DNA from: a virus
Lineage: Duplodnaviria > Heunggongvirae > Uroviricota > Caudoviricetes
Strand: one strand, 5' to 3'
Length of the DNA stretch: 15,704 nucleotides
Virus record (IMG/VR): IMGVR_UViG_2703718817_000007
Shown: in pieces, positions 2,181 through 13,030 of the stretch
Layout of the letters: each line of letters starts with the position of its first letter
Position numbering within the stretch: position 1 is the stretch's first letter
Notes under the pieces: model-generated
Seen by the model: the letters and a program-made list of their open reading frames with translations, nothing else
Databases searched by the model: none
Told to the model about the DNA's origin: nothing
Made by a program: the position numbers and the translations under genes

Positions 2181-3263
2181 ATGAAAAAATTAACAGTGGC
2201 AATTTCTGCTGTAGCTGCATCAGTACTGATGGCGATGTCTGCTCAGGCAGCTGAAATTTATAATAAAGACAGTAACAAGCTGGATCTATACGGGAAAGTT
2301 AATGCCAAGCACTACTTCTCCTCTAATGATGCAGATGATGGTGATACTACTTATGCCCGTCTTGGCTTCAAAGGTGAAACCCAAATCAACGATCAACTGA
2401 CTGGTTTCGGTCAGTGGGAATATGAATTCAAAGGCAACCGTGCTGAATCTCAAGGTTCTTCCAAAGACAAAACCCGTCTTGCATTTGCAGGCCTGAAATT
2501 TGGTGATTACGGCTCAATCGATTACGGCCGTAACTACGGTGTAGCATACGACATCGGTGCGTGGACTGACGTCCTGCCAGAATTCGGTGGTGATACCTGG
2601 ACCCAAACAGATGTGTTCATGACTGGTCGCACTACTGGTGTTGCAACTTATCGTAACAACGACTTCTTTGGTCTGGTCGATGGCCTGAACTTTGCTGCTC
2701 AGTATCAGGGTAAAAATGACCGCACTGACGTAACTGAAGCCAATGGTGATGGTTTCGGTTTCTCCACTACTTATGAGTATGAAGGATTCGGCGTGGGTGC
2801 AACCTATGCTAAATCAGATCGCACTGACGGTCAGGTCGCCTATGGTAAGAGCAAATTCAATGCCTCCGGCAAAAATGCGGAAGTATGGGCTGCAGGCCTG
2901 AAATATGATGCGAACAATATCTATCTGGCTACCACATATTCTGAAACTCAGAATATGACCGTTTTTGGTAATAACCATATTGCAAACAAAGCACAAAACT
3001 TTGAAGCAGTAGCACAATATCAGTTTGACTTCGGTCTGCGTCCATCTGTTGCTTACCTTCAGTCAAAAGGTAAAGACCTTGGTGTTCATGGTGACCGAGA
3101 CTTAGTCAAGTATGTCGATGTCGGTGCTACTTACTACTTTAATAAAAACATGTCCACTTTTGTTGATTACAAAATCAACTTAATTGACGATAGTAAGTTT
3201 ACCAAAACAGCTGGTATTGATACCGACGACATCGTCGCTGTAGGTCTGGTTTATCAGTTCTAA
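2181..3263 (+). CDS. nmpC: Outer-membrane general porin of the OmpC/OmpF family (NmpC / phage PA-2 Lc-like), intact, 360 aa
   Basis: ORF track 2181..3263. Signal peptide [23 protein letters not shown]|AEIYNK; porin hallmarks ([15 protein letters not shown].., Gly/Tyr-rich beta strands, C-terminal ..VAVGLVYQF). Sits between Q and the lysis genes in the opposite orientation, as nmpC does in DLP12. Preceded by a roughly 400-bp AT-rich region (1780-2180). Confidence 0.9.
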
Positions 3264-4849: not shown

Positions 4850-5665
4850 TCAATGAACGGTATCGAGCAGCTTTAACAGCTCAGGGAATCGGGATTCGAA
4901 GAAATGCGGCTGCGTCTCGCGCGGATTTGCAGGACTGGTGATGTTCTTGCCGAACATGCAGCCTTTCGCGGTCAGCGACCAGAATTTTTTGATGTTGTTA
5001 ATCGCGGTACGGCTGTATCGTTCGCGTTGTTCAACGATCCCCAGCTTCGCCATCTGGTGATATGCCTGATTAGCCGTCAGGCGGATACCATACTGCTTCA
5101 GCAGTGCACTCAGCGACAGCGTAGGGCGGCTTGAACCATCTGGCGCATCAGCAGGTGCATCAATGGCATAGATCGGCATAAGTTCAGGAAGACCAGCTAC
5201 CTTTGATAATTTCTGGTATGCACCAAGTTTCGAGGAGTTTGACAGATTTAGAGTCTTTGCTGCTGATTCAAGCAGAATGACCCCGGATTTAATTTTGTCG
5301 GATGTGGTTTCTTCTGGTGATGAATTATGAAGCGCATCAAAAGTACGTATCACTTTTAAGCTGAATGCCGGGCTGATCCACATTGCATATGCATAGACCA
5401 GCTCTTTACAGACATACGTCCCACCATTGCGCCCCTGAATGGTGATGACAGGAATACTACGGGAATCTCCCGTAGTTTCTTCTTCCAATAATTCCACAAG
5501 AGCCTTCGTTTCAGGACGACGCATAAACTCGTGAACTTCCAGCGAACGGGAGGAGCGATTCTCACCAGCGGCAAGAAGAGCTGCTTTCTGAAGGTCGTTA
5601 AGACAGTAGTTAGATTCGAAGTACTGGCGCACAGAAACGCCATCAATTACAAGCAACTGATTCAT
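4850..5665 (-). CDS. KilA-N domain protein (phage antirepressor/Bro-like architecture), 271 aa
   Basis: ORF track 4850..5677 is the GTG-extended form; ATG at 5663-5665 follows GGAGAAA. N-terminal 100 aa resemble the KilA-N fold (MNQLLVIDGVSVRQ.., ..TYVCKELVYAYAMWISPAFSLKVIRTF); C-terminal half is a separate domain. A consensus LexA box lies just upstream. Confidence 0.7.
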   Translation of the reverse strand: MNQLLVIDGVSVRQYFESNYCLNDLQKAALLAAGENRSSRSLEVHEFMRRPETKALVELLEEETTGDSRSIPVITIQGRNGGTYVCKELVYAYAMWISPAFSLKVIRTFDALHNSSPEETTSDKIKSGVILLESAAKTLNLSNSSKLGAYQKLSKVAGLPELMPIYAIDAPADAPDGSSRPTLSLSALLKQYGIRLTANQAYHQMAKLGIVEQRERYSRTAINNIKKFWSLTAKGCMFGKNITSPANPRETQPHFFESRFPELLKLLDTVH

Positions 5666-5827: not shown

Positions 5828-6223
5828 TTACCGAGTTGCTAATTTGCAACTCGCTTTTTCGTACTTACTGATAGTGATCTCGACCTTCCCCTCCGGGATA
5901 ACCGGTCCCCACTCCACCAGCATTCTTTTCACCTGACTGTCGTCTTCCCACACACCCGCGTGGGTCAGGGCGTCAAACAGCGCCTTGTTATAGTTGTCCA
6001 GATCGCGGATCCGGTTATCCGGAGGAAACAACACGATCTCCACTGAAGCAGGTGCCGACGTTGGTTTCGGCAGACGACGTAACTGCTCAACTATTGCTGC
6101 ACACGCCGCGCTCTGGAATTTTCGCCCCGCCGCGCTTATCAGGCTCTTACCAGCAAACGCCCCTTTGTTGGGGTGTCGCCAGTACGTGTTCACGCTGGGC
6201 GGAAAAGGTAGGATCAGCTTCAT
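5828..6223 (-). CDS. rusA: RusA-family Holliday junction resolvase, 131 aa
   Basis: ORF track 5828..6223. MKLILPFPPSVNTYWRH.. with the RusA acidic catalytic region (..DNRIRDLDNYNKALFDALTHAGVWEDDSQV). ATG overlaps the upstream gene stop (ATGA). Confidence 0.85.
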   Translation of the reverse strand: MKLILPFPPSVNTYWRHPNKGAFAGKSLISAAGRKFQSAACAAIVEQLRRLPKPTSAPASVEIVLFPPDNRIRDLDNYNKALFDALTHAGVWEDDSQVKRMLVEWGPVIPEGKVEITISKYEKASCKLATR

Positions 6224-6546
6224 ACTTTCAGGCCCCTCTCATGTAACCAGTGGGCTGCACGCAGCCTGGCGTTTTCCTCACCGGCAAGCAGTGAGCGGAT
6301 AATCCCGACCGCCTCGCTGTCGTCGTCCTTCACCACGGTATGAAGCGTGATCCCCCGGGCCACACCACGCTTTATCGTGATGACGCCTTTTTTCTCCAGT
6401 GCGCGAAGATGCTCCACCGCTGCATTCACTGAACGGTATCCCAGCATGGTTGCCACCTCCTGATTGGTTGGCGGGAAGCCACGTTCTTTCTGATAAGAAA
6501 TCAGCATATCCAGCACCTGCTGCTGGCATTGAGTTAACGTCGTCAT
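6220..6546 (-). CDS. Small protein consisting of a LexA-type N-terminal winged-helix DNA-binding domain only, no S24 peptidase domain, 108 aa
   Basis: ORF track 6220..6546. LTQCQQQVLDMLISYQKERGFPPTNQEVATMLGYRSVNAAVEHLRALEKKGVITIKRGVARGITL parallels the E. coli LexA N-terminus ([55 protein letters not shown]) as recalled. Only about 35 aa follow. ATGA overlaps at both ends. Confidence 0.7.
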   Translation of the reverse strand: MTTLTQCQQQVLDMLISYQKERGFPPTNQEVATMLGYRSVNAAVEHLRALEKKGVITIKRGVARGITLHTVVKDDDSEAVGIIRSLLAGEENARLRAAHWLHERGLKV

Positions 6547-8628: not shown

Positions 8629-8976
8629 GACCGACCTCTATTTCCCTGAATTTACGACGAAACTGTTCGAGCGGACTGAAGCACTCATGCTCATAGCCTT
8701 CGCGGAGGTAGATAACCCGTTGTGTTTCCGGTTCCCAACGAATGACTCTGACGGGCACTCCGTAGTGATCTTTGAACCAGCGGTTAACTTGTCGCAAAGG
8801 ACTGTCTCCTTCTGCCGGTTGAAATCCCCCACAGCCCACTCTGCAAAGCTGTGGGTTACAATTTCCCTGTCACCTGGTACATTCACTGCATAGCAATATT
8901 CCACCTTCGCTTTTCCACCCGGTACAGGAAGCGCAATCAGTTGCGAGCGACGGTAGTGTGTTGTTAAACTGTTCAT
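8618..8976 (-). CDS. Hypothetical small gene between the cII-position gene and the replication gene; apparently split across two frames (possible -1 frameshift, 1-nt indel, or two overlapping ORFs)
   Basis: Frame A (8638..8976) starts with an ATG overlapping the upstream stop (ATGA at 8973-8976) but its C-terminal half is Ser/Thr-rich and low complexity. Frame B (8618..8839) has globular-looking composition (..[49 protein letters not shown]..) and its stop overlaps the replication gene start. The frames meet at a C5/G5 run (8826-8830). Confidence 0.4.
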
Positions 8977-9542
8977 GCGTTAGTTTCTCCACAACCAGAA
9001 GCAATCGACGCCACGACGCCCGGAGCTGCACACTCGCGGGCGTCATTACTTTCTGAAATGCAAAAAATTTTGTAGACAAGTGCTGCATGCTCCTGCAGCT
9101 TCGAAATTGAGAGATACAGCTCGTCGTTAATTGCTGTCTTCTCATGCGGTTCCACTACACCGTCTTCGATTGCTGAACGAATCTGTTTTGAATAACTGCC
9201 GATCTGTTCAATGACTTCCAGCAGACGCTGGTTAATATCGGCGTTGTCCACATCCTCGACGTCAGGAAGAGACACAAAGACGCCATTTGCAGACTGCGCC
9301 ACAGCATCAGCAATGAAATGAGTGCCACCAGCACGCTGTAAAACCATTGCCCATCCCAGCGGGAAAATCTGATCGCCATCTGCACGAAGGCGGTTGAATA
9401 AAGCGTTTTCTGTTACATCGAGCCAGTCAGCCGCTTCAGCGTAACCACCCGGCAACGCCGCGATAGTTTTTCTGACAGCTTTCACGTACCACTCAGGCTG
9501 TTTTTCTATTTTCCAGTGATGCTTACCCACGATTAGCCTCAT
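8973..9542 (-). CDS. cII-position regulatory protein (HTH-containing; resembles the phage CII / CP76-type family by architecture), 189 aa
   Basis: ORF track 8973..9542. Directly downstream of cro; HTH-like segment [21 protein letters not shown]. Family assignment is from recollection of 186-CII-like proteins and is uncertain. Confidence 0.45.
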
Positions 9543-9573
9543 CGTTCTGTGGTTAAAAATTGAAAGTGTTCTG

Positions 9574-9774
9574 CTAATCTTTCGGATAGATATCCGGTCT
9601 TAAGTCAGATTTCGTAATTGCACCTGACGTGCATTGCTCAAGTTTTTTAGCCAGCACAAAACTGGCTTTTTTATAGCCATTGAAAACCAGCCGTAAGTAG
9701 CCAGGTGTTGAGCCAACTTTTCCGGCCAACTCGCCCTGCTGTTCTTTGGTTAAAGAGTCCCAATACGCTTTCAT
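9574..9774 (-). CDS. cro: Cro-like HTH repressor (YdaS/Cro-type), 66 aa
   Basis: Internal ATG at 9772-9774 of the long ORF 9574..10077, preceded by GGAGGT; product MKAYWDSLTKEQQGELAGKVGSTPGYLRLVFNGYKKASFVLAKKLEQCTSGAITKSDLRPDIYPKD. The upstream 300 nt of the long ORF is antisense to cI and is rejected. Divergent from cI across the operator region. Confidence 0.7.
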   Translation of the reverse strand: MKAYWDSLTKEQQGELAGKVGSTPGYLRLVFNGYKKASFVLAKKLEQCTSGAITKSDLRPDIYPKD

Positions 9775-9777
9775 ACA

Positions 9778-9864
9778 ATATGTACCTCCGGTATACATAT
9801 TACATGATTGAAATGAACCTTCAAGATACTTGTACCTTAACGGTACAAGGGTTTTAATTTCGTT
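9778..9864. promoter_or_regulatory. Immunity-switch operator/promoter region (OR): palindromic operators with divergent pR-like and pRM-like promoters
   Basis: Perfect palindrome CTTGTACC-N5-GGTACAAG at 9829-9849; imperfect ATATGTACC-tcc-GGTATACATAT at 9778-9800. Minus-strand promoter TTGAAG (9819-9824) -16- TAATAT (9797-9802) feeds cro. On the plus strand a TTTAAT-like -10 at 9852-9858 sits about 7 nt before the cI ATG, suggesting a leaderless cI mRNA. Confidence 0.6.
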
Positions 9865-10539
9865 ATGAAAACAATCCATGACATCCGGCGGTCTAACGCC
9901 AGAAAACTGAGAGATGGTGTTGGCGGGAATTCTTCCTTTGCCACTATGATTGATCGCGAGCCAACCCAGACCAGCAGGTTTATGGGAGATGGTGCTACTA
10001 AAAATATCGGTGACAGCATGGCACGACACATCGAAAAATGTTTCGACCTGCCTGTCGGATGGCTCGATCAAGAACACCAGACAACGAACATCACAAAAAA
10101 ACCTGATGTTTCAATCACTAATAAACAAATCACATTAGTCCCTGTCATATCATGGGTACAGGCCGGAGCATGGAAAGAAGTTGGATATTCTGAGGTTGAT
10201 TTGAGCACAGCAGAAACGTATCCCTGCCCTGTACCCTGTGGGGAAATGACTTATATCTTGCGGGTGATAGGTGATTCAATGATTGATGAGTACCGCCCGG
10301 GAGACATGATTTTTGTCGATCCTGAAGTACCTGCCTGCCACGGTGACGACGTTATTGCATTGATGCACGATACAGGTGAAACCACCTTCAAAAGGTTGAT
10401 AGAAGATGGGACACAGCGTTATCTCAAAGCGTTAAACCCAAACTGGCCTGAGCCTTACATTAAGATCAACGGTAATTGCTCTATAATTGGAACTGTGATT
10501 TTCTCAGGAAAACCAAGAAGATACAAAATCAAAGCCTAA
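9865..10539 (+). CDS. cI: CI-type prophage repressor (N-terminal HTH plus C-terminal LexA-like S24 peptidase domain), 224 aa
   Basis: ORF track 9865..10539, ATG start. C-terminal domain has GDSM (Ser nucleophile), ..TFKRLI.. (Lys) and VQAG linker motifs as in lambda cI/LexA. Confidence 0.85.
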   Translation: MKTIHDIRRSNARKLRDGVGGNSSFATMIDREPTQTSRFMGDGATKNIGDSMARHIEKCFDLPVGWLDQEHQTTNITKKPDVSITNKQITLVPVISWVQAGAWKEVGYSEVDLSTAETYPCPVPCGEMTYILRVIGDSMIDEYRPGDMIFVDPEVPACHGDDVIALMHDTGETTFKRLIEDGTQRYLKALNPNWPEPYIKINGNCSIIGTVIFSGKPRRYKIKA

Positions 10540-10551
10540 TCAATGTTTATG

Positions 10552-10576
10552 AACCTGCTTCGGCAGGTTTTTTTAT
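10552..10576 (+). terminator. Intrinsic terminator after cI
   Basis: Stem aacctgc (10552-10558) / gcaggtt (10563-10569), loop ttcg, followed by tttttat (10570-10576); 13 nt after the cI stop. Confidence 0.7.
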
Positions 10577-10578
10577 AC

Positions 10579-10610
10579 TTGACAATGTACCTTTGGGATA
10601 CATAATGTAC
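10579..10610 (+). promoter_or_regulatory. Strong sigma70-like promoter with embedded operator half-sites; candidate pL/OL
   Basis: TTGACA (10579-10584) -16 nt- CATAAT (10601-10606). ATGTACC at 10585-10591 and 10604-10610 with GGATACAT between them resemble the OR half-sites (TTGTACC/ATGTACC). Confidence 0.5.
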
Positions 10611-10690
10611 CCAAGAGAAACAACAAACAGGCAGGACGCCCACGAAGTAGCCGCCTGGAGCATATGAAGTCTAGGATGATTCATTAGCAA

Positions 10691-10718
10691 CAAAAAAGCG
10701 CCCTACAGGACGCTTAGC
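10691..10718 (-). terminator. Intrinsic terminator for the minus-strand moron gene
   Basis: On the minus strand: aagcgucc / gggcgcuu stem (one G-U pair), loop ugua, followed by uuuuguug. The plus strand has an A-run before it, so it should not stop plus-strand transcription. Confidence 0.5.
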
Positions 10719-10728
10719 TCTTTAACAA
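10717..10728 (+). promoter_or_regulatory. boxA-like element (exact match to the rrn boxA core GCTCTTTAACAA), about 105 nt downstream of the pL-like promoter
   Basis: gctctttaacaa at 10717-10728 on the plus strand; followed by a 6-bp hairpin gcaatc-taca-gattgc at 10749-10764 (boxB-like position). May alternatively be part of the cassette boundary repeat. Confidence 0.4.
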
Positions 10729-10747
10729 TCTGGATATCCACAACAGT
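10726..10747. repeat. Left arm of an inverted repeat bracketing the moron gene
   Basis: caatctggatatccacaacagt; core aatctggatatcc is the exact reverse complement of 11294-11306 (ggatatccagatt), with extended similarity (..caaca..) beyond the core. Confidence 0.6.
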
Positions 10748-10753
10748 AGCAAT

Positions 10754-11245
10754 CTACAGATTGCCGTTAAGTTTTCTGGACAACTCCTCAATGGATGGAG
10801 GCGATACGTAATCCGGATTTTTATTCATCAGAAACTTATTTTCACAGTGGAGGCACCTGCTTTTATGAAAAAGCTCATCTTCGCTAACCGGGAATGGTTG
10901 AAGTATCGATACTATCTTTTGTCCAAAACATTTTGGGCAAAGATGCATGGTTATGCTGCCACCGTTCACGATTACCTCCTTCGAGTATACAAAAGTACCC
11001 GACTCAAGTTGGTTAAGGATATAGCCTTCCGTCTGAGCCTCAAAGTTTTCGAATTCTGCAATTTTAGCTTTGAGAGAAGCATTTATTTCTTGATAAGAGC
11101 CCACCAGTTCAACGAGAGACACGCATTCGCGCTGAATAGACGCAAGCTTTGAGTTCAGCTCACCAATAGCCGCATTTACTTCAGCTTGAGTTTTTGCCTC
11201 GTTCATTAGTTTTGCAATCTGGGCTGTTTCACGAATAGCCGTCAT
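10754..11245 (-). CDS. AT-rich moron gene: hypothetical protein with N-terminal coiled-coil-like region and C-terminal CxxC..CxxC zinc-ribbon, about 163 aa
   Basis: ORF track gives 10754..11533, but the first 96 codons are Arg/Pro-rich GC-rich sequence that overlaps the repeats and is unlikely to be coding; the ATG at 11243-11245 begins MTAIRETAQIAKLMNEAKTQAEVNAAIGELNSKLASIQ.. and ends ..HLCPKCFGQK..(24 aa)..CLHCENKF.. The ATG has no clear SD, so the start is uncertain. Base composition is clearly more AT-rich than flanking phage DNA. Confidence 0.5.
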   Translation of the reverse strand: MTAIRETAQIAKLMNEAKTQAEVNAAIGELNSKLASIQRECVSLVELVGSYQEINASLKAKIAEFENFEAQTEGYILNQLESGTFVYSKEVIVNGGSITMHLCPKCFGQKIVSILQPFPVSEDELFHKSRCLHCENKFLMNKNPDYVSPPSIEELSRKLNGNL

Positions 11246-11283
11246 TGCTGCCGTTAATTCAGCGATCACATTGAATACTCTTA

Positions 11284-11329
11284 TTGTTGTTGGGGATATC
11301 CAGATTAACCGAATCCTTGTTGTTGGGGA
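11284..11329. repeat. Right arm of the moron-bracketing inverted repeat plus a 13-bp direct repeat
   Basis: ttgttgttgggga occurs at 11284-11296 and again at 11317-11329; the first copy runs into ggatatccagatt (11294-11306), the reverse complement of 10727-10739. Confidence 0.6.
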
Positions 11330-11557
11330 ATAACCAGGTCCACCTCGCCTGATGTGGCTAAAAGCAGGCACATAACAGCTAAGTATTTTCAACCAGAGAG
11401 AATCCTTAGCGTTGTGGTGAATGCGGCTCAGCGCACGCGGGTTAAGGTTGAGGCTGACAGTCGACCTTCTGTGGATACCCACCCGCCTGGTGTGCAACCT
11501 TCGCCAGGCACCGGGAGGCACCCGGCACCACAACTTTATGCTGTGTGTAGTCCTGGC

Positions 11558-11592
11558 GGTACCAGTTTGTACCCTTGCTTCCGGCTGGTACC
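11558..11592. promoter_or_regulatory. Operator-like GGTACC palindromes upstream of the early-left operon
   Basis: GGTACCAGTTTGTACC at 11558-11573 (contains TTGTACC, the OR half-site) and GGTACC at 11587-11592. Confidence 0.35.
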
Positions 11593-13004: not shown

Positions 13005-13030
13005 AAATGCCCCTGCGGGGGCATTTATGG
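13005..13030 (+). terminator. Terminator-like hairpin between the yfdQ-like and yfdR-like genes (weak)
   Basis: aaatgcccc (13005-13013) / ggggcattt (13018-13026), loop tgcg; the downstream tail is short (auuuaugg). Confidence 0.35.

Follow-up and report, generated by a model that had tools for sequence, protein, structure and literature searches.

The window analysed here is a stretch of 15,704 nucleotides of viral DNA (IMG/VR record IMGVR_UViG_2703718817_000007), in which two divergent regulatory genes are separated by a gap of 90 bp:

9574..9774, minus strand: cro (ymfT/croE), 66 aa, with a YdaS/HTH_3-like helix-turn-helix in its translation; annotated as Cro or ymfT in relatives
9865..10539, plus strand: cI (ymfK/cohE), 224 aa, with a putative N-terminal helix-turn-helix and a C-terminal S24 autocleavage domain (Peptidase_S24, E 1.5e-26)

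The region around both genes (9400-10700) is 99.9% identical in DNA sequence to phage PhiR49_1, approximately 98% identical to the Shigella phages SfIV and SfV, and approximately 95% identical to Stx2c-converting phages. Of 5426 complete E. coli genomes, 2608 contain a match to this region, with the genes under the names ymfK, ymfT and ymfL. Based on these DNA identities and annotations, the locus was assigned to the e14/SfV immunity type, with ymfK/cohE as its cI and ymfT/croE as its cro. The type is very common: besides about half of the complete E. coli genomes, it is found in e14 of K-12, in SfV and SfIV, in the Stx2c phages and also in a cdt-I phage. Very probably, the gap between the two genes is the oR of an e14/SfV-type lambdoid prophage, and positions 10579-10622 are its oL.

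The window is collinear with PhiR49_1 throughout. Left of cro, the minus strand carries ymfL, ymfM, the replication gene O, a methylase gene, rusA, Q and the lysis genes; a porin gene on the plus strand separates Q from the lysis genes. Right of cI are yfdP, yfdQ and further early-left genes, followed by the integrase gene. Apparently, the window represents a complete lambdoid prophage.

The initial annotation had described the intergenic region as a compact immunity switch. A lambda-style switch is supported: as in lambda-type systems, the repressor and cro genes point away from each other, from ATG codons at 9865 (cI) and 9774 (cro, minus strand), across a short regulatory gap. It is not particularly compact, as 90 bp is close to the distance between cI and cro in lambda, which is approximately 100 bp.

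This cI/cro switch is a known and strongly conserved element of a known, lambda-style kind. The gene pair (CohE/CroE of e14; cI/Cro of SfV and SfIV), the operator region (in the annotation of SfV) and the leaderless mRNA (in K-12) are already on record, and a site-level operator map of the e14/SfV type may add detail to that record. In the searchable literature, other than the SfV genome paper (PMC134923) and the analysis of e14 (PMC331406), we found no binding experiments for CohE or CroE, and neither footprints nor operator sequences named for these proteins.

Operators and promoters between cro and cI

Two palindromes in the gap had been proposed as operators, and both were recovered in an inverted-repeat search. 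One is a perfect 8+5+8 inverted repeat, CTTGTACC-TTAAC-GGTACAAG, at 9829-9849 (arms 9829-9836 and 9842-9849). The other is an imperfect repeat around 9778-9800 (arms 9771-9784 and 9794-9807, 86% complementary), which in the operator register reads TGTACC-TCCGG-TATACA and occupies 9781-9797. Both palindromes are therefore real, but the count of two was too low: a third site, at 9814-9830, had been overlooked, and oR has three. The features of the gap are as follows:

9781..9797, no strand assigned: oR-a, TGTACC-TCCGG-TATACA; 18.8 bits (weight matrix built from sites of other genera)
9785..9789, minus strand: cro Shine-Dalgarno, GGAGG (CCTCC on the plus strand), within oR-a; read from the sequence and invariant in 19 loci
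9797..9802, minus strand: candidate pR -10, TAATAT; predicted from the sequence
9814..9830, no strand assigned: oR-b, TGAACC-TTCAA-GATACT, a conserved weak site adjoining site c; 8.5 bits
9819..9824, minus strand: candidate pR -35, TTGAAG, 16 nt from the -10; conserved TTG
9830..9835, plus strand: candidate pRM -35, TTGTAC, 17 nt from the -10; read from the sequence
9831..9847, no strand assigned: oR-c, TGTACC-TTAAC-GGTACA, the core of palindrome 9829-9849; 23.0 bits
9853..9858, plus strand: pRM -10, TTTAAT, ending 6 nt before the cI ATG; conserved nnTAAT box

The palindrome by itself is marginal evidence. Three perfect 8+5+8 palindromes occur in the window against a simulated mean of 0.28 (probability of at least one, 0.23), and the expectation for the intergenic gap is only 0.0016. 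What decides the matter is the comparison with relatives. Nineteen loci coding for relatives of cI (73–100% identical) were fetched, and 17 of them, two duplicate E. coli loci being left out, were compared with the window, giving 18 loci from Escherichia, Klebsiella, Leclercia, Pantoea, Rahnella, Edwardsiella and other genera. All 18 have site a as TGTACC-TCCnn-nnTACA, site b as TGAACC-nnCAA-GnnACT and site c as TGTACC-N5-GGTACA. Information content is maximal, at 2.0 bits, in the half-site columns, against 0.2–0.9 bits in the five spacer positions of sites c and oL-1 (0.2–0.6 bits for site c alone). The geometry is equally constant: site a is 50 bp from site c in all 18 loci, and site c is 34 bp from the cI ATG (35 bp in two loci). 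Centre-to-centre spacings within oR are 33 bp and 17 bp.

Viral contigs gave the same picture. They were collected with a search pattern that covered sites b and c only; at least 120 matched, and 119, with 67 distinct sequences, were compared. Site a, though outside the search pattern, was at its fixed offset in all 67 distinct sequences listed, and the cI ATG was at c+34 in 66 of the 67. At least 25 different spacers separate the invariant half-sites of site c among the contigs listed. In the 18 loci and the 119 viral contigs alike, the sites are 17 bp long, of the form TGTACC-N5-GGTACA, with invariant half-sites and free spacers. This phylogenetic footprint upholds the earlier reading of the palindromes as putative operators, and several partly symmetric oR sites over pR and pRM, here three of 17 bp, are what a lambda-type switch has.

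When the window was scanned with a weight matrix trained solely on sites from other genera, four matches reached 12 bits or more, where the null model gives a mean of 0.03; all four are in oR or oL. In a scan of the whole 45-kb genome of PhiR49_1, sites of at least 14 bits were confined to oR and oL. The sites, their invariance, their fixed geometry and their restriction to two regions are thus observed directly, as are the domain homologies described below. One further match, inside cI (10230-10246, 9.5 bits), was rejected and taken as chance, since TGTACC is not retained at synonymous positions in other genera.

Site b deserves separate mention. Its TGAACC and terminal CT are invariant across genera within an otherwise variable promoter spacer, a pattern that suggests binding by a protein. 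Part of this conservation may possibly be attributed to the overlapping -35 elements of pR and pRM; the TTG of the pR -35 is the conserved CAA (plus strand, 9822-9824) inside the spacer of site b.

A pR-like promoter had been placed over the cro-proximal palindrome, and the best candidate -10, TAATAT, indeed abuts that site. In relatives, it is replaced at the same position by CATAAT, TAGAAT or TATCCT, with A2 and T6 kept. It should be noted that pR does not appear in the list from the promoter scan, because it matches the consensus at just 8 of 12 positions. Its start is predicted at approximately 9789-9792 on the minus strand, which would give a leader of 15–18 nt beginning at the Shine-Dalgarno sequence. 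The latter, which is situated 10 nt before the cro ATG and was overlooked in the initial annotation, lies together with the predicted pR start within oR-a.

The pRM-like -10 had been noticed close to the cI ATG, and this was correct: TTTAAT ends 6 nt before it. An nnTAAT box is found 6 nt before the ATG in all loci (7 nt in two), the intervening 6 nt being unconserved, and the variants among the viral contigs listed are TTTAAT, TTAAAT, TCTAAT and TGTAAT. The pRM hexamers and their 17-nt spacer put the start of transcription at A9865, i.e. the A of the cI ATG. In K-12, differential RNA-seq mapped the start of ymfK as a class I site with a leader length of 0 (Romero et al. 2014; PMC4681348), and ymfK is one of five leaderless mRNAs in E. 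coli (PMC4681348). The K-12 e14 sequence is the same as that of the window from 9793 through the cI ATG. The leaderless cI mRNA that had been suspected from the window is therefore supported by experiment in the orthologue, whose start lies on the A of the ATG in an identical sequence; the mapped start likewise underlies the position given to the pRM -35. A leaderless cI mRNA from the maintenance promoter is a further lambda-type feature. Site c overlaps the pRM -35 and spacer.

Alternatively, the perfect palindrome could be an intrinsic terminator or another RNA hairpin instead of a protein-binding site, as 9829-9849 followed by GGTTTTAATT was flagged as terminator-like by the terminator scan, and a stem that is conserved around a variable loop could formally also be that of an RNA hairpin. 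However, no plus-strand gene ends upstream, cro being on the opposite strand, and the stem is invariant, never displaying compensatory changes. The T-rich tract is the pRM -10, and transcription begins 6 nt beyond it. Furthermore, the same half-site sequence is found at five positions, in a fixed register relative to promoter hexamers, and one of these positions is inside the pL spacer. We therefore rejected the palindrome as a terminator and consider an RNA hairpin of any kind extremely improbable; the sites are treated below as operators.

The left operator region

Immediately beyond the end of cI, the following features were found:

10551..10577, plus strand: cI intrinsic terminator, an 8-pair stem (10551-10570) and T run; conserved in relatives
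10579..10606, plus strand: pL, TTGACA-16 nt-CATAAT; 11 of 12 to consensus in the promoter scan
10586..10602, no strand assigned: oL-1, TGTACC-TTTGG-GATACA, filling the pL spacer; 22.1 bits, one mismatch
10606..10622, no strand assigned: oL-2, TGTACC-CAAGA-GAAACA, over the pL start; 14.1 bits, two mismatches

The pL promoter is directly 3' of the cI terminator, which is annotated as a terminator in SfV and Ayreon, and it reads in the same direction as cI. Its hexamers are identical in all loci but one (L015, TTGACAG). As in oR, the half-sites of oL-1 are invariant and its spacer is free. oL-2 begins at the last T of the pL -10, 20 bp centre to centre from oL-1; its left half is TGTACC in 17 of the 18 loci (TGTACT in L020) and its right half is degenerate. 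Transcription from pL is predicted to begin at approximately 10612-10614 on the plus strand. The recurrence of operator-like half-sites at 10585-10610, already pointed out in the initial annotation, thus marks a genuine second operator region, functionally oL/pL, and a second set of operators (two sites within 10579-10622) on the early-left promoter is again what is seen in lambda-type switches. At pR and pL alike, the last T of the -10 is the first operator base, and this shared overlap makes the design internally consistent. The differential RNA-seq data from uninduced K-12 (PMC4681348) list no start site for either promoter, as expected if both are repressed.

The half-sites had, furthermore, been reported to recur at 11558-11573, from which it was suggested that one repressor coordinates three regions. 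A distal operator there, by which the same repressor would control a third transcription unit, has some superficial attraction: an exact TTGTACC is present at 11567-11573 with GGTACC motifs close by, and the stretch 11558-11573 is conserved in SfV and Ayreon. Nevertheless, it contains no 17-bp site, the best matrix score being -14 bits, and neither the order nor the spacing of the half-sites is that of an operator (GGTACC-N4-TGTACC; TGTACC-N13-GGTACC). Ayreon reads TGTACA at this point, e14 is without the region entirely, and the promoter scan gave no promoter-like site near 11558-11573. The search for the half-site recovered the sites of oR and oL, but the total number of TTGTACC heptamers (four in the window against 1.5 expected) is within chance and 11558-11573 yielded no site; as 18 of 200 shuffles reach four, the copy at 11567-11573 is no more than would be expected by chance. 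With the matrix score, the relatives and the scan of PhiR49_1 all against it, this operator was rejected, and a third regulated region is most improbable. As strong sites occur solely at oR and oL, in the window and in PhiR49_1, one repressor would govern two regions, as in lambda, and not three.

A separate observation concerns the pL leader. An element of approximately 60 nt, lying approximately 15–70 nt downstream of the predicted pL start, is conserved across genera and contains a hairpin (10654-10658/10671-10675). Three inner pairs of this hairpin change on both sides and stay paired, all cells are paired, and its covariation score was reached by no shuffle. Searches of Rfam with the whole window and with 10560-10740 gave no hit that reached or approached the threshold. 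The SfIV paper reports no N, cII or cIII in SfIV, SfII or SfV, and no N-like protein was found among the first genes downstream of pL in SfV and e14. The structured RNA of the pL leader may take part in early-left control in phages without N.

The repressor and the proposed logic of the switch

The Peptidase_S24 domain of cI covers residues 93-212 (Pfam, E 1.5e-26), and the C-terminal domain matches that of lambda cI (E 1.9e-9). Residues G136, S138 and K176 are invariant among six aligned repressors, and A100-G101 is present in four of the six (window, Hafnia, Edwardsiella and a Vibrio phage). The protein thus has the S24 C-terminal domain, the Ala-Gly site and the Ser/Lys dyad of a lambda-type repressor, and is predicted to be cleaved. 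Its N-terminal 80 residues had no match in Pfam, even at E 10, and were weakly similar to solved phage repressors (5d50, 6e-4; 7nkv, 0.05); a single-sequence AlphaFold model of this domain was poor (pLDDT 62, and below 50 across the putative helix-turn-helix). The product of cro has weak Pfam matches to YdaS_toxin (1.5e-5) and HTH_3.

In three E. coli loci of the genome collection, cI has 100% identity to that of the window; SfIV, Ayreon, PhiR49_1_star and phage 2H10 show 100% identity over residues 1-106. The half-sites are identical in K-12 e14, SfV and Ayreon, save for position 12 of site a, where T, G and A all occur. The same repressor and the same half-sites are what members of one immunity group share, and these phages are accordingly predicted to belong to the e14/SfV group.

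More distant relatives point to the protein that reads the sites. The repressor of a Pseudomonas phage is 59% identical in its N-terminal part (residues 1-71), has the putative recognition helix TQxSR, and is accompanied by sites of the TGTACC type whose a/b/c arrangement is the same, with 52 bp between a and c and 17 bp between b and c. In a Vibrio phage, the N-terminal domain is 55% identical, again with TQxSR, and a c-like site (TGTACG-CGTTT-GGTACA) and a weak a-like site are retained. Repressor and operator thus vary together: relatives with TQxSR keep TGTACC-type operators, and H-19B, with SQLTQ, does not. Most likely, therefore, a dimer of cI binds the 17-bp TGTACC-N5-GGTACA sites. The Cro proteins of the compared phages are homologous to one another. 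The cassette therefore appears to move as one unit, and these sites may well be used by Cro too, as they probably are by CroE.

Which protein would occupy each site, in what order, and where pR and pL would start, we infer from the sequence as follows. cI (YmfK/CohE), with its own type of putative N-terminal helix-turn-helix and putative recognition helix TQxSR, would bind at site a over the edge of the -10, the start site and the ribosome-binding site of cro, and, together with the weak site b over the pR -35, this would shut off pR and with it the cro-ymfL-ymfM-replication operon. oL-1 and oL-2 would silence pL, from which the early-left and integration genes are transcribed. Occupancy of site c would limit the synthesis of cI, via autorepression or via Cro, because the site covers the -35 and spacer of pRM. 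cI itself would be translated from the leaderless mRNA starting at its ATG. Upon DNA damage, RecA would stimulate self-cleavage of cI at Ala100-Gly101 and the prophage would be induced: cleaved CohE would release pR, and cro, ymfL, ymfM and replication would be turned on. The proposed release of pR agrees with the literature on e14, in which a downstream division inhibitor is SOS-inducible in a LexA-independent manner, attributed to the cI-like repressor.

By analogy with OR2 of lambda, site b might also activate pRM. The cooperative and activating logic of lambda is not simply transferable, since the best site lies on the repressor's own promoter and adjoins site b at 17 bp centre to centre, unlike the spacing and affinity order of lambda. 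The operators could thus be real and their logic still not lambda-like, with the strongest site, c, imposing tight negative autoregulation, with site b being promoter sequence only, or a site specific for Cro, and with no activation of pRM of the OR2 type. Site c is the best match to the consensus (23 bits) and spans -34 to -18 of pRM; site b has 8.5 bits, its distance of 17 bp from c corresponds to a roughly opposite face of the helix, and conservation extends to its deviations (A at position 3, T at position 17). On the other hand, a sequence match does not predict the relative affinities of cI and Cro, and in lambda these two proteins rank the same three operator sites in opposite order. 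The centre of site b falls at -43 of pRM, no more than 1 bp away from where OR2 lies in lambda. In addition, pRM is clearly active in the lysogen-like state of K-12 (PMC4681348). We consider such a departure from lambda possible but rather unlikely. The same holds for the wider proposal that the e14/SfV switch is wired unlike lambda, through strong negative autoregulation or a Cro-first shut-off in place of OR1-OR2 cooperativity and pRM activation, perhaps with the pL-leader RNA involved, for which our expectation is likewise low. Were it true, the design would be a widespread one, its geometry kept across genera of Enterobacterales and very similar in a Pseudomonas phage.

Whatever the case, the sites that we read as operators of an e14/SfV-type switch would be expected to decide mutual exclusion among phages of this type, and to determine when the SOS response activates the genes that follow cro, among them the division inhibitor ymfM. 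The map of five sites, with their promoters and fixed spacing, offers a basis for binding and reporter work and leaves the understanding of such switches unchanged.

Comparison with known systems

The e14 of K-12 is the same element. Its intergenic region is one base off that of the window, with G at 9792 where the window has A, so that site a of the window is one mismatch worse; a few bases differ within cI, and the terminator, pL and oL are the same. e14 is a defective remnant, whereas the window is an apparently complete prophage, and downstream of oL the window has a 259-aa reverse-strand gene in place of ymfJ/orf33. YmfK of e14 has been described as an SOS-sensitive cI-like repressor.

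In the GenBank record of SfV, a feature named 'putative operator region' corresponds to positions 9780-9848 of the window and spans sites a, b and c. Half-sites are identical in SfV and the window and the spacers differ: site c has CTATC in SfV and TTAAC in the window, and oL-1 of SfV has CATGA.

Among repressors of solved structure, the closest relative of the N-terminal domain is Rep of Salmonella phage SPC32H (PDB 5D50; residues 1-73, E 6e-4), the matching segment starting with MKSIYDIRRKN. The match is confined to this domain, with none seen to the rest of Rep. The cI of Stx phage H-19B is homologous in its N-terminal domain (41% over residues 6-81), and the cI and cro genes of this phage are likewise divergent. 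However, its putative recognition helix is SQLTQ, the repeats are unrelated (TTATC-type), which together imply a different immunity specificity, and its cI has an ordinary Shine-Dalgarno leader. YmfL of the window resembles CII of phage 186.

With lambda, the window shares the divergent cI and cro, three partly symmetric 17-bp sites in oR over back-to-back promoters, a leaderless cI mRNA, a PL that has operators of its own and is transcribed in the direction of cI, and a homologous S24 C-terminal domain. It differs in the N-terminal domain of cI, which is unrelated at the sequence level, and in the half-sites, TGTACC against TATCAC in lambda. The spacings in oR are 33 and 17 bp, whereas those of lambda are 23–24 bp, and oL has two sites instead of three. 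The best-matching site lies over pRM in the window and over pR in lambda, and site a of the window, unlike its counterpart in lambda, includes the ribosome-binding site of cro.

A conserved element in the predicted pL leader

The leader predicted for pL, the early-left promoter that lies just after the cI terminator, carries a conserved element of approximately 60 nt:
10629-10683, conserved leader element
10654-10658 paired with 10671-10675, stem of its hairpin

The element, which runs from AACAGGCAGGACGCCCACGAAGTAGCCGCC through the hairpin to GATGATTCG, is common to the Shigella phage SfV, the K-12 cryptic prophage e14 and loci of several further genera. Its stem covaries, the two arms reading CCTGG/CCAGG, CCGGT/ACCGG, CCCGG/CCGGG or CCCCA/TGGGG, with two-sided changes in three of the five pairs and pairing kept in all cells of the comparison. 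A search of Rfam returned no match to the element. In phages that have been reported to lack N, it may serve as a leader RNA or an RNA of the antitermination type.

Downstream of pL and its operator oL, a gene on the opposite strand precedes yfdP:
10754-11533 (-), gene for a 259-aa protein
10696-10715 (-), terminator belonging to this gene

The same slot is occupied by orf33 in SfV and by ymfJ in e14. Only a weak, coiled-coil-type match was obtained for the 259-aa product in Pfam. The gene looks like an inserted ‘moron’, and pL transcripts would appear to have to traverse it in antisense.

Other genes and palindromic sequences in the window

Three further genes deserve mention:
8973-9542 (-), YmfL gene, next after cro
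6220-6546 (-), 108-aa ORF, adjoining rusA and an adenine methylase gene
2181-3263 (+), porin gene, flanked by the gene for the Q antiterminator and by the lysis genes, on the strand opposite to both

YmfL matches Pfam family Phage_CP76 (phage 186/P2-type CII regulator; 1.3e-13), and therefore, judging from this protein match, the window may hold a 186-type establishment regulator inside an otherwise lambdoid layout. In the record of PhiR49_1, a phage 99.9% identical to the window over the stretch compared (9400-10700), the 108-aa ORF is annotated as ‘hypothetical protein similar to LexA’ and the porin gene is labelled ‘Outer membrane porin OmpD’. The interval between Q and lysis genes is the slot at which toxin genes sit in Stx phages.

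An operator-like 17-mer, TGTACCCTGTGGGGAAA (10230-10246; 9.5 bits with the operator weight matrix), lies inside the cI coding sequence; it was rejected as an operator, being probably a chance occurrence, since no conservation at synonymous positions was found in other genera. Further perfect inverted repeats with arms of at least 8 nt occur at 1734-1755, 2936-2956 (within the porin gene), 5456-5476, 5832-5853 and 13005-13026, and none of the five resembles the operator. Two of them look like terminators from their setting, as 13005-13026 (AAATGCCCCTGCGGGGGCATTT) is placed after the yfdQ stop and 5832-5853 is followed by a T run.

Putative operators and immunity in related phages

The repressor of phage Ayreon is identical to that of the window over its first 106 residues (100%), and the Ayreon operator half-sites equal those of e14, bar one base in site a. 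Despite this match, the Ayreon host is given as E. coli K12, and e14 is normally present in K-12. This leaves two readings: a host strain devoid of e14, or an e14 repressor that does not confer immunity.

More distant repressors, with N-terminal domains 55-59% identical to that of the window, are found in two phages:
L029 1116-1184, putative operator region of Pseudomonas phage vB_Pae_CF60a
L031 1117-1185, putative operator region of Vibrio phage Va_PF430-3_p42

In Va_PF430-3_p42, TGTACG-CGTTT-GGTACA is retained close to the start of the repressor, and the Shine-Dalgarno sequence of the divergent gene is covered by a weaker site, AGTACC-TCCGA-GGTAAT. The three-site layout of the window recurs in vB_Pae_CF60a, where TGTACC-TCCTG-GGTACA overlies the corresponding Shine-Dalgarno sequence and TGTACC-GTCAA-GGTTCT directly abuts TGTACA-TTTCT-GGTACA.
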